Assembly: GCA_018260615.1 (NCBI GenBank)
Contig: JAGWDQ010000037.1
Coordinates: forward strand, 1 to 10,986
DNA from: Candidatus Altarchaeum sp.
GTDB taxonomy: Archaea > Altiarchaeota > Altiarchaeia > Altiarchaeales > Altiarchaeaceae
Direction of reading: 5' to 3'
Length of the DNA stretch: 10,986 nt
Shown here: positions 3,086 through 10,986 of the stretch, piece after piece
How positions within the stretch are numbered: the stretch's first letter is position 1
Layout: every line of letters starts with the position of its first letter
The notes under the pieces: generated by a model
Told to the model about the DNA's origin: nothing
The model's database searches: none
What the model saw: only the letters and a program-made list of their open reading frames with translations
Program-made: the position numbers and the translations under genes

Positions 3086-3163
3086 GTATTTGTTTAGCAC
3101 CACAGAGGCACAGAGAAAATAATTTTAAGTTTGATTTTTGTCTTTATTAGTCCTTTAAAAAAA

Positions 3164-3314
3164 CCTCACACAAAGTCACAGAGCATATATCTCATAGTTC
3201 TTTGTGTCTTTTTCAAAATCAATAGATTTTGAAAATCTCCGAGCATTTCAAACTTGTTTGAAATACACGAACGGAGTGAGCGTAAGAGCGAGGTGACTGT
3301 GTCTCCGTGTGAGG
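3164..3314. mobile_element. Putative MITE/REP-like composite palindromic element
   Basis: Imperfect terminal inverted repeats cctcacacaaagtcacag (3164-3181) and ctgtgtctccgtgtgagg (3297-3314), 15/18. Internal perfect hairpins at 3210-3235 (11-bp stem) and 3245-3264 (9-bp arms). GC-richer than the flanks. Partial copies at 9111-9161 and 10676-10723. The repeats are seen directly; mobility is inferred. Confidence 0.6.
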
Positions 3315-3357
3315 AATTACATTTTAATTATCTAAACAATTACAAATTTAAAATTAA

Positions 3358-8687: not shown

Positions 8688-8996
8688 ATGGAAAGAGCAA
8701 GAATAATAATATACGGAAATCAGAAGCAAAATGTTGAAGATATGACAAATCAGATTGTCTCTATTGCAAAGAATGATAAGGCAGTTGTCAGAGGTCCGAT
8801 ACCTCTTCCGACTAAAAAGATAAGAGTTGTTGTCAGGAAGAATGTAAGCGGCGAAGGAAATACTGCATGGGACAGATATGAAATGAGGATCTCAAAAAGA
8901 ATTGTAGATATTTACAGAAGTGATAAAGCGATGAGAGATGTAATGAAGATACAGGTACCTGATGATGTGCATATAGAAATAGATGTAACGAGATAA
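8688..8996 (+). CDS. rps10: 30S ribosomal protein uS10
   Basis: GPIPLPTK, GEG..WDRYEMR, IQVPDDVHIEI; canonical position after EF-1alpha. Confidence 0.95.
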   Translation: MERARIIIYGNQKQNVEDMTNQIVSIAKNDKAVVRGPIPLPTKKIRVVVRKNVSGEGNTAWDRYEMRISKRIVDIYRSDKAMRDVMKIQVPDDVHIEIDVTR

Positions 8997-9007
8997 AACA
9001 AATAAAA

Positions 9008-9065
9008 TTTTTTCGTTCTTTTTCTTTTTACTTTATGTTTTTTTGTTTAATTTCTTTTTTATTTC
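9008..9065 (+). terminator. Long T-rich tract, likely terminator of the rps7-rps10 operon
   Basis: Successive oligo-T runs starting 12 nt after the rps10 stop. Confidence 0.6.
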
Positions 9066-9106
9066 TTAAAAATTTTTCCTTGTAATTCCATAATTTTTTA
9101 TCAAAG

Positions 9107-9161
9107 GTGTCATTTTAAACATTTGTTTAAAATACACGAATGAAATGAGCGTAAAAGTAAG
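9107..9161 (+). repeat. Decayed copy of hairpin B plus tail of the 3244-3292 element, overlapping the queE start
   Basis: 41 of 51 aligned columns match 3244-3292. Perfect arms attttaaaca/tgtttaaaat (9112-9133), extendable by gtgt/acac. Confidence 0.8.
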
Positions 9162-9843
9162 AGAAATATTCTCAAGTATTCAGGGAGAAGGAATATATGT
9201 CGGAAGAAGGCAAATTTTTGTGAGGTTTGCAAAATGTAATCTGGACTGTGATTATTGTGATACAGCCCACAAAAGAGATGCAAAATTTTGTATGGTTGCA
9301 GGAAAGAAAAAATTTTTGAAAACCGCCGATGATATTGTAAATGAAATTAAAAATTTGGACACAAAAGATGTTTTTAGCATTTCATTAACCGGAGGAGAAC
9401 CGCTAATTTATACATCTTTAATCAAACAAATTCACAAAAAAACAGGCATCCCTCTTTATCTTGAAACAAATTCAACACTTCCGGAAAAAGCAGACGAAAT
9501 TAAAAATTTAATCACTTATGCTGCCTGCGGGCTCAAATTAAATTATCCGAAATTTTATAATGACTCTTTAAAGACGATAGAAATTTTAAATCACTGCCTG
9601 AAATCCGGAAATTTATTTGTTAAGGTTGTTATAACCAAAAATGTTGATGTCGGTCAAATTGAAGAACTAACAGGGGACTTAAAAAATATCGGTGATTTAC
9701 CTTTGGTTTTACAGCCGCAGACAGGAATAAAATGGGACAATACCTATAAAAACACATTATTAACAATGAGTGAAACAGCAGGTAATTTTTTAAAAGAGGT
9801 TAGAATAATTCCTCAAACACATAAATTTTTGGGCTTTGAATAA
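9145..9843 (+). CDS. queE: 7-carboxy-7-deazaguanine synthase (radical SAM), preQ0/archaeosine pathway
   Basis: EIFSSIQGEG, FVRF, CNLDCDYCDT (CxxxCxxC), LTGGEP, LETN, LQP, PQTHK. Confidence 0.92.
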   Translation: MSVKVREIFSSIQGEGIYVGRRQIFVRFAKCNLDCDYCDTAHKRDAKFCMVAGKKKFLKTADDIVNEIKNLDTKDVFSISLTGGEPLIYTSLIKQIHKKTGIPLYLETNSTLPEKADEIKNLITYAACGLKLNYPKFYNDSLKTIEILNHCLKSGNLFVKVVITKNVDVGQIEELTGDLKNIGDLPLVLQPQTGIKWDNTYKNTLLTMSETAGNFLKEVRIIPQTHKFLGFE

Positions 9844-9861: not shown

Positions 9862-10908
9862 TTATATAACTTTACATTCCCCTAAAATTTTTTCCGCATC
9901 TTTTTCCAGATTAAATTTATTAAATATTGTATACCTGTCTCTAACTTTAGGTGCAAATTTTAACGCCTCAATTATATATTCCTTATCTATTCCGAGTTCC
10001 TTTGCATTTGTCGGTGCCTCAACATCTTTTAATGCCTCTTTTATTTCTTTCCAGCCTCCTTCGTTTTTATGTGAATAAATTTCATGCAAATAGGCAGAAA
10101 TAATTGTTCCGACACCGCATTGTTCCCCGTGTAACGCATGCTTAAATTTATATTTTTCCGAAAGCACATCTAATGCATGACTGAATAAATGTTCCGAGCC
10201 GGATGAAGGTCTGCTTGACCCGGCAATTGCCATTGCCACACTGCTGCTGAGCAATGCCTCAACCAGAATGCTGATATCAGAAAAAATTTTCTTTGAATTT
10301 TGCATCACAATTTCCGCACTCATATTTGAAAGTGAAGCAGCATAATCGCCAAAGTATTCATTTTTTTCATCCCTTGCCAATTTCCAGTCAAGCACAGCGG
10401 TAAAATTTGAAATCGCATCTCCAAATCCGGAAGCGGTTAAATTTTTCGGAGCATTTGAAATTATTCTAATGTCGGCTATGACTGCGAGAGGAGAATTTGT
10501 TTTAACCGAAACACCTCCCCCGATCGAAGCATAAGGAGATGCAATTCCATCATGAGATGCAGCAGTCGGAATACTTATAAAAGGCAGTTTATTGTTAAAC
10601 GCATAAATTTTTGCTTTGTCTATTGTGCTTCCGCCGCCGATGCCGCAGACAAAACCGAAATTTTGATTTTTAATATTTTCAAAATCAACAGATTTTGAAA
10701 ATCTCCGAACGATAGTGAGGTGAATTTCTTCATCAGGATTTACAAATTCCCCTCCGATTTCACCCTGAATAATATCGGCAAATTTTTTGGTGAAATTTCC
10801 GGAAAAAATCAAAGGACTTTTTAAATTTAACTCATCGCAGACATTCTTGATTTCATAAATTGCTCCTTCTCCGACAATTACCTTGCGGGGTAATTCTATT
10901 TTTTTCAT
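9862..10908 (-). CDS. egsA: sn-glycerol-1-phosphate dehydrogenase (archaeal lipid backbone)
   Basis: GIGGG..ID, PTAASHDGIASP, GFGD..SNFTAVLDW, SSRPSSGSEHLFSHALD, HGEQCGVG. The start is placed at MKKIELPRKV (10908) by family resemblance, not at the ORF-track ATG (10977). Confidence 0.95.
   Translation of the reverse strand: MKKIELPRKVIVGEGAIYEIKNVCDELNLKSPLIFSGNFTKKFADIIQGEIGGEFVNPDEEIHLTIVRRFSKSVDFENIKNQNFGFVCGIGGGSTIDKAKIYAFNNKLPFISIPTAASHDGIASPYASIGGGVSVKTNSPLAVIADIRIISNAPKNLTASGFGDAISNFTAVLDWKLARDEKNEYFGDYAASLSNMSAEIVMQNSKKIFSDISILVEALLSSSVAMAIAGSSRPSSGSEHLFSHALDVLSEKYKFKHALHGEQCGVGTIISAYLHEIYSHKNEGGWKEIKEALKDVEAPTNAKELGIDKEYIIEALKFAPKVRDRYTIFNKFNLEKDAEKILGECKVI
10676..10723 (+). repeat. 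Intragenic copy of hairpin A plus tail of the 3210-3296 element, inside egsA
   Basis: 10676-10710 matches 3210-3244 at 33/35. Perfect stem ttttcaaaatc/gattttgaaaa. The tail cgaacgatagtgaggtga resembles 3268-3296. Confidence 0.9.
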
Positions 10909-10986
10909 AATTTTATTTATAAAGTTTTTCTGTAACTTCTCAATAAGTTGTGGTAAATAAATTTTGTAACTGCTCATTTTATAAAA

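Follow-up and report, generated by a model that had tools for sequence, protein, structure and literature searches.

The queE-like gene in the 10,986-nt stretch of Altiarchaeum DNA analyzed here (hereafter, the window) very likely owes its start codon to a small dispersed repeat. In the explanation that best accounts for the evidence, the repeat inserted into the 5′ end of the gene and its core now provides the predicted start; a further step, in which the repeat would also have brought a TATA box and given rise to a leaderless mRNA, stands at about even odds within that explanation.

The window comes from a contig (C37) of a 2.23-Mb metagenome-assembled genome (MAG) with 33% GC, and its relatives belong to Candidatus Altiarchaeum and the Altiarchaeales. 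Candidatus Altiarchaeum is an uncultivated groundwater archaeon, and all genomes compared here are draft MAGs. Around queE, the window encodes rps7, EF-2, EF-1alpha, rps10, the QueE-like radical SAM gene and a convergent Fe-ADH/EgsA-like gene, and the order EF-1alpha, rps10, queE and Fe-ADH (minus strand) is conserved in three further Altiarchaeum species. The rps10 gene (8688–8996, plus strand; Pfam Ribosomal_S10, E 1e-21) is the last of the rps7–EF-2–EF-1alpha–rps10 operon and is separated from queE by a 148-nt spacer. Archaeal transcription is terminated by oligo-T tracts, and the spacer contains five oligo-T runs of T5 to T7 (9013–9066, plus strand) that are likely the terminator of the rps10 operon, as read from their sequence. 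The corresponding spacer measures 148–325 nt in other species and about 975 nt in Altarchaeum sp. CG2_30_32 (L033:528–1500), where ORFs of at least 80 codons are absent.

The queE frame (9145–9843, plus strand) is intact over 232 codons, and its translation contains the radical SAM CxxxCxxC motif and the N-terminal EIFSSIQGEG motif. Its product matches Pfam Radical_SAM (E 1e-14), and all five of its top NCBIfam matches (E 1e-14 to 1e-20) are QueE models, scoring 52–74 bits, below the equivalog cut-offs of 200–300 bits. An ortholog at 80% identity carries the NCBI name QueE. By these matches, the gene is best called QueE-like, QueE being the 7-carboxy-7-deazaguanine synthase of tRNA modification.

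The 5′ end of this gene resembles an intergenic repeat elsewhere in the window. A sequence-only reading of the DNA had aligned 9111–9161 with 3244–3292, and our global alignment reproduces that similarity exactly, with 41 identities and 2 gap columns over 51 columns; all eight substitutions are indeed transitions, with C or G in the intergenic copy and T or A at queE. The alignment had been drawn too long at one end, however: homology runs from 9111/9112 to about 9154, and 9155–9161 are not part of the element, as orthologs without it have these bases too. Five or six of the eight transitions fall inside the homologous stretch. The 21-nt core of the repeat family, ACACGAACGAAGTGAGCGTAA, matches 9134–9154 with two mismatches, and blastn and nhmmer searches with 9095–9175 recovered dozens of further copies with E values down to 8e-8. 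The intergenic reference copy, comprising hairpin and core (3244–3286, plus strand), lies in a nested repeat cluster at about 3150–3320, and copies 98–100% identical to it are present on at least nine other contigs.

In the 2.2-Mb genome as a whole, the core occurs 20 times exactly, 68 times with up to two mismatches and 100 times with up to four. More than 45 copies found by nhmmer with 9095–9175 each carry a variable but perfect A/T-rich palindrome immediately 5′ of the core, defining a module of A/T palindrome plus 21-nt core, and the queE copy shows the canonical spacing between the two. Its palindrome, hairpin 1 (9112–9133, plus strand), forms a 9-bp A/T stem (9112–9120 with 9125–9133) closed by a 4-nt loop, with a predicted RNA folding energy of −12.1 kcal/mol (z −2.7). 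Its core (9134–9154, plus strand) contains a mini-hairpin at 9140–9146. In the family, this mini-hairpin reads A-C-[GAA]-G-T flanked by tandem G-A pairs, with a loop of the form G(A/G)A. Among 138 copies, the tandem pairs are well preserved (G-A in 127, A-G in 134), and core positions 8 and 12 form a C-G pair in 129, T-A in two, T-G in two and C-A in none. The two T-A copies are queE, where the closing pair is T9141–A9145, and one at about 18342–18387 (minus strand) of contig C138; the latter, the only other T...A copy, likewise has an ATG in its core, identically placed, and no long ORF follows it.

Each of the four Altiarchaeum species genomes searched contains the family, with 68, 55, 22 and 96 core copies (a reversed-pattern control gave 0); 12 further genomes from the same class yielded no copy. 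An Rfam scan of the whole window gave no match at E values up to 1. That the likeness between queE and the repeat arose by chance in AT-rich sequence has virtually no probability: the region is AT-rich and 9155–9161 of the original alignment are truly coincidental, but 200 dinucleotide-shuffled versions of the window yielded no core match at three or fewer mismatches, independent bases predict 0.001 matches at two or fewer mismatches in the whole genome against the 68 observed, the hairpin is in its canonical position, and sister lineages retain an empty site.

A second member of the family lies within a coding sequence in the window. The Fe-ADH/EgsA-like gene (9862–10977, minus strand) contains an in-frame module at 10676–10723 (minus strand) that is 97% identical to 3210–3242 and encodes 16 extra residues (HLTIVRRFSKSVDFEN) directly before the GIGGG motif. 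These residues are absent from the L031 and L033 orthologs, and the L032 ortholog has a different 7-residue segment in that place.

To compare queE 5′ ends among relatives, we placed the insertion by pairwise alignment with cheap gap extension, together with inspection of a shared 11-mer, and discarded the placement given by MAFFT. The 11-mer is the left flank of the insertion in the window (9100–9110, plus strand) and includes a relic of the ancestral GTG start (9107–9109). It is identical in L032 and has one mismatch in L072, two loci whose products are 83–84% identical to the window QueE, and in both it joins directly to the codons that the window has from 9155. The GTG within the 11-mer is in frame there, giving the N-terminus M-S-E-V-R-E-I-F. 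L084 (73% identical) is likewise empty, with ATG TCC GAA in the same place, as are L033 and its twins (80%; M-L-K-V-R-E) and L075 (70%; M-E-I-R-E). Two protein records, P0008 (the L084 product) and P0006 (compared as protein), begin M-S-E-[VI]-R-E and not with an element-type N-terminus. An M-S-E-[VI]-R-E N-terminus is present in three lineages, and S-V-K is confined to carriers of the element. The comparison proposed by the sequence-only reading, of queE 5′ ends in relatives without the element, thus turned up the empty site, with its flanks joined directly and the start in frame.

The filled site occurs in the window and in L082 and L083 (96% identical; two independent assemblies), which have ATG in the core and an M-S-V-K-V-R-E N-terminus, and in Altiarchaeales archaeon A3 (L031; 86%), which has GTG in the core and reads V-S-V-K-V-R-E. 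Because two independent assemblies of the 96% lineage share the structure, it is not a misassembly. Both junctions in A3 are as in the window: on the left, a 9-bp hairpin comes after AGGTGNC, and on the right, ancestral codons come after the 3′ end of the core. The insert measures 43–44 nt, with a right boundary that is ambiguous by 2–3 nt, where the empty site has CG and the filled site has element sequence. The A3 element has itself been invaded: about 180 nt of extra repeat modules, some of them reversed, are nested in its core (L031:1313–1495), splitting hairpin 1 from the 3′ half of the core, and a partial core in tandem immediately precedes the GTG start.

A tree of 1.4 kb of DNA places L075 and then L033 outside a trichotomy of the window, A3 and the pair L032–L072; a tree of QueE proteins gave no resolved branching order. 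Given the empty outgroups and shared junctions, the economical interpretation is that the element was gained once, before the window lineage and A3 separated. It is extremely improbable that the traffic ran the other way, with queE as the source from which the repeat family arose or captured its sequence. Only the similarity itself would suggest this, along with the speculation that REP2 of Neisseria came from the 5′ region of a gene (PMC3184786); against it, at least five ortholog lineages have no module at queE, although the L032 and L033 genomes hold 55 and 96 core copies, respectively, and the queE copy is diverged and AT-shifted, not consensus.

Overall, these comparisons support a model in which a transposase-less mobile element of about 43–44 nt landed within the opening codons of queE in an ancestor shared by this species, the 96%-identical lineage and A3. 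The insertion point would have been directly after the ancestral start, at (A/G)TG TC, so that a stop codon came to lie behind the old start; the GTG at 9107 now reads GTG TCA TTT TAA, with the in-frame TAA at 9116–9118. In this model, queE survived because the core brought a GTG, 10 nt from the 3′ end of the element, that is in the reading frame of the remaining gene. The core GTG would then have become the new start, retained as GTG in A3 and changed to ATG in the window lineage, and the N-terminus of the protein would have changed from M-S-E-V-R-E to M-S-V-K-V-R-E.

The present frame is consistent with this history. No canonical start precedes ATG 9145 in the open frame, and the next in-frame start is codon 26, beyond the invariant EIFSSIQGEG; for annotation purposes, the ATG here and the GTG in A3 are the only viable queE starts. 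Codons 1–3 (ATG AGC GTA, starting with the ATG at 9145–9147) lie inside the element core, and ancestral sequence resumes at about 9155. The claim that the element supplied the start and the first residues, aligned as MSVKVRE, therefore survives for M, S and V and fails for the following K-V-R-E, which belong to ancestral queE: the codons after the core, AAGTAAGAGAA, are also found in orthologs without the element. Since K-V-R-E is ancestral, the alignment of GCG AGG TGA in the repeat with GTA AGA GAA in queE is coincidental.

The gene has remained under purifying selection since the insertion. The most diverged pair of element carriers, the window and A3, gives dS 0.55, dN 0.072 and dN/dS 0.13, and the window and L082 give dN/dS 0.20; these low ratios between element carriers imply purifying selection throughout the time that queE has depended on the element start. 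That the insertion instead killed queE and left the open frame as a relic is very improbable. The old start was severed, and the new one has an atypical G at −3 that is seen in 5% of genes, but the 232-codon frame is unbroken with both motifs in place, and dN/dS is 0.13–0.20 in three element carriers with dS reaching 0.55. We regard it as shown that the element inserted, in which direction the site changed, that the old start was lost and a new start codon gained, and that purifying selection continued; we infer that ATG 9145 is the start actually used.

Both hairpins of the queE copy have changed in a compensated manner. The G>A change that produced the ATG at 9145 is accompanied by C>T four bases upstream, at 9141, so that the mini-hairpin pair is kept; A3 has C and G at these positions. 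Hairpin 1 of the window departs from that of A3 at loop positions and at two stem pairs, both of which are altered in both arms; no stem change is left uncompensated. L082 shows one further A>G that yields a T-G wobble. Selection on structure at queE would explain these changes, as would template-switch correction of quasi-palindromes. In the window, the target-derived GTGT (9107–9110) can also pair with the ACAC that opens the core (9134–9137), adding four pairs to hairpin 1 in the predicted fold.

At the insertion junctions in queE (9110/9111 and about 9154/9155), we found no target-site duplication, and the ends of the element are not inverted repeats. From these features, the element appears MITE-like in its working and is not classed as a classical MITE. 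Several other copies are preceded by GGTG(A/T), which hints at a target preference. The sequence-only reading had described the queE copy as a domesticated element, and as a general property of the family this receives no support: 47 copies point toward gene starts and 45 toward gene ends, and the queE copy is the only one of 138 to overlap a real gene start, with gene starts for all genome-wide statistics here defined by crude ORF rules. The only other long frame that starts in a core copy has 153 codons and lies on contig C104; by eye, it looks to be a low-complexity, non-coding frame, and we did not accept it as a gene. A second proposed role, that the palindrome is operator-like, likewise finds nothing in its support.

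Whether the element also supplies a promoter is more finely balanced. An archaeal leaderless promoter is recognized by a TATA-like box about 22–27 nt upstream of the transcription start. The 5′ arm of hairpin 1 contains TTTAAA (9114–9119, plus strand), and the earlier proposal that a C-to-T change in the arm created this hexamer holds: A3 and the family consensus have C, so the T is derived. The hexamer ends 25 nt before the ATG. In the upstream regions of 38 tRNA genes of genome G000, the commonest bases form a T4-A5 box between −31 and −21, counted from the mature 5′ end, and this is probably the TATA box of the organism. The position of TTTAAA at queE matches that of the tRNA-derived box; the sequence 5′ of it is unlike the A-rich stretch that precedes the box at several tRNA genes.

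Orthologs bear on this point as well. TTTAAA ends 25 nt before the queE start in the window and L082, 26 nt in A3, 26 nt in L072, 30 nt in L032 and 23 nt in L033, and these boxes at 23–30 nt come from three unrelated sequence contexts; in the window and L082 the hexamer derives from the hairpin arm, and in A3 it derives from different, nested sequence. L075 and L084 have no TTTAAA 22–30 nt before the queE start. In the window, TTTAAAAT recurs in the 3′ arm, at a spacing that would place the transcription start within the gene, and L082 has lost the 3′-arm TTTAAA and retained the one in the 5′ arm. The genome-wide background of TTTAAA at 22–30 nt is 10.3% of genes, a figure to be read with the fact that this distance window was picked partly after the data were seen. 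Profiles of TATA-like motifs upstream of 565–961 protein-gene starts showed no peak near 25 nt, a result that speaks neither for nor against leaderless expression. A 3-nt periodicity in TTTAAA distances proved to be an artefact, as the motif holds an in-frame TAA and the ORFs were defined from stop codons. Overall, we consider the comparative support for a TATA box at queE suggestive, and that the 5′ arm serves as a TATA box for a leaderless queE mRNA has about an even chance of being correct. Such an mRNA would follow the oligo-T terminator of the rps10 operon.

Translation initiation in this organism forms part of the same question. Upstream of confident starts in genome G000, we detected no Shine-Dalgarno (SD) signal, with G making up only 6–8% of bases at −20 to −5; A occupies −3 to −1 in 75–86% of genes, and TTTAAA directly abuts the start codon in 93 of 961. 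By these statistics, the initiation context of the genome looks unusual.

An account with the same insertion and the same start, in which the element contributes no promoter, has a probability that we put somewhat short of even. Here queE would be transcribed from an ancestral A/T box that precedes the old GTG (about 9064–9078) or by read-through from rps10, and both hairpins and a three-codon relic uORF would lie in a 5′ leader at least about 45 nt long. The ancestral upstream region is in fact retained and can be aligned with that of empty-site relatives; the lack of an SD signal and the A/T-rich regions before starts suggest that leadered initiation without SD is the norm; the genome as a whole shows no TATA peak of the leaderless kind; and the preservation of both stems by compensated changes makes sense if the hairpins are in RNA. 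This account has to contend with the insertion having shifted the ancestral box from about 26–30 nt to more than 60 nt before the start, with the return of TTTAAA to 25–26 nt in both element lineages from different sequences, and with the five oligo-T runs that separate rps10 from queE.

The reading with an element-borne promoter can be extended to the family, and in that wider form it is a tentative and rather unlikely proposal: the element would be a latent, portable gene-start module, with a palindrome arm acting as TATA box about 25 nt before the core GTG in an archaeon without SD signals. If true, one insertion could bring the promoter, the transcription start and the start codon of a leaderless mRNA at once, and the queE hairpins would be kept for expression and not merely by a mutational mechanism.

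With the insertion and its element-derived start, the locus offers a cleanly polarized natural experiment, in which the empty, filled-GTG and filled-ATG states are all preserved in related lineages. It shows how a housekeeping gene can outlive the loss of its start codon to a mobile element by taking over a start that the element carries, and it gives a concrete place to study promoters and translation starts of Altiarchaeum, whose genome lacks an SD signal. The case also adds an archaeal example to a phenomenon documented mainly in bacteria, through REP2, RPE and Correia elements.

The closest known counterparts are REP2 of Neisseria and an inverted repeat (IR) on Borrelia plasmids, dispersed stem-loop repeats that fuse their own initiation codon to host ORFs (Delihas 2011, PMC3184786). 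The queE element shares with both the fusion of a repeat start codon to an ORF, possibly along with a promoter. REP2 differs in being a larger cassette with promoter, RBS and ATG that lies upstream of many co-regulated genes, whereas the queE case is archaeal, has no RBS, involves one of about 138 copies and shows no orientation bias in the family; it is a one-off rescue and not a regulon. The Rickettsia RPE is palindromic mobile DNA translated within a conserved functional protein (Ogata et al. 2000, cited in PMC3184786). In-frame translation of palindromic DNA is common to RPEs and the queE element, and the 16-residue copy in the EgsA-like protein of the window is similar; RPEs are 100–150 bp long and insert internally, whereas the queE element replaces a start codon and contributes only three codons. 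Correia elements and the outward promoters of IS elements illustrate that mobile DNA lying on the 5′ side may bring promoter elements to a gene (PMC3184786). Those promoters are bacterial, of the sigma-70 type and demonstrated by assay, in contrast to the archaeal TATA-like arm proposed at queE.

Among archaeal repeats, the family resembles the Haloquadratum MITEs, PATEs and small mobile repeats (SMRs) in being short, non-coding, hairpin-forming, multi-copy, genus-specific, nested and without a transposase. It differs from them in lacking terminal inverted repeats and a target duplication at the queE insertion, and in conserving an asymmetric core that has a mini-hairpin of the C-GAA-G type. 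Ca. Altiarchaeum hamiconexum, with 146 MITEs per Mb, had the highest archaeal density in a published census (PMC11602168). Set beside these systems, queE offers a clear case from the archaea of a familiar process, the reshaping of genes by selfish DNA.
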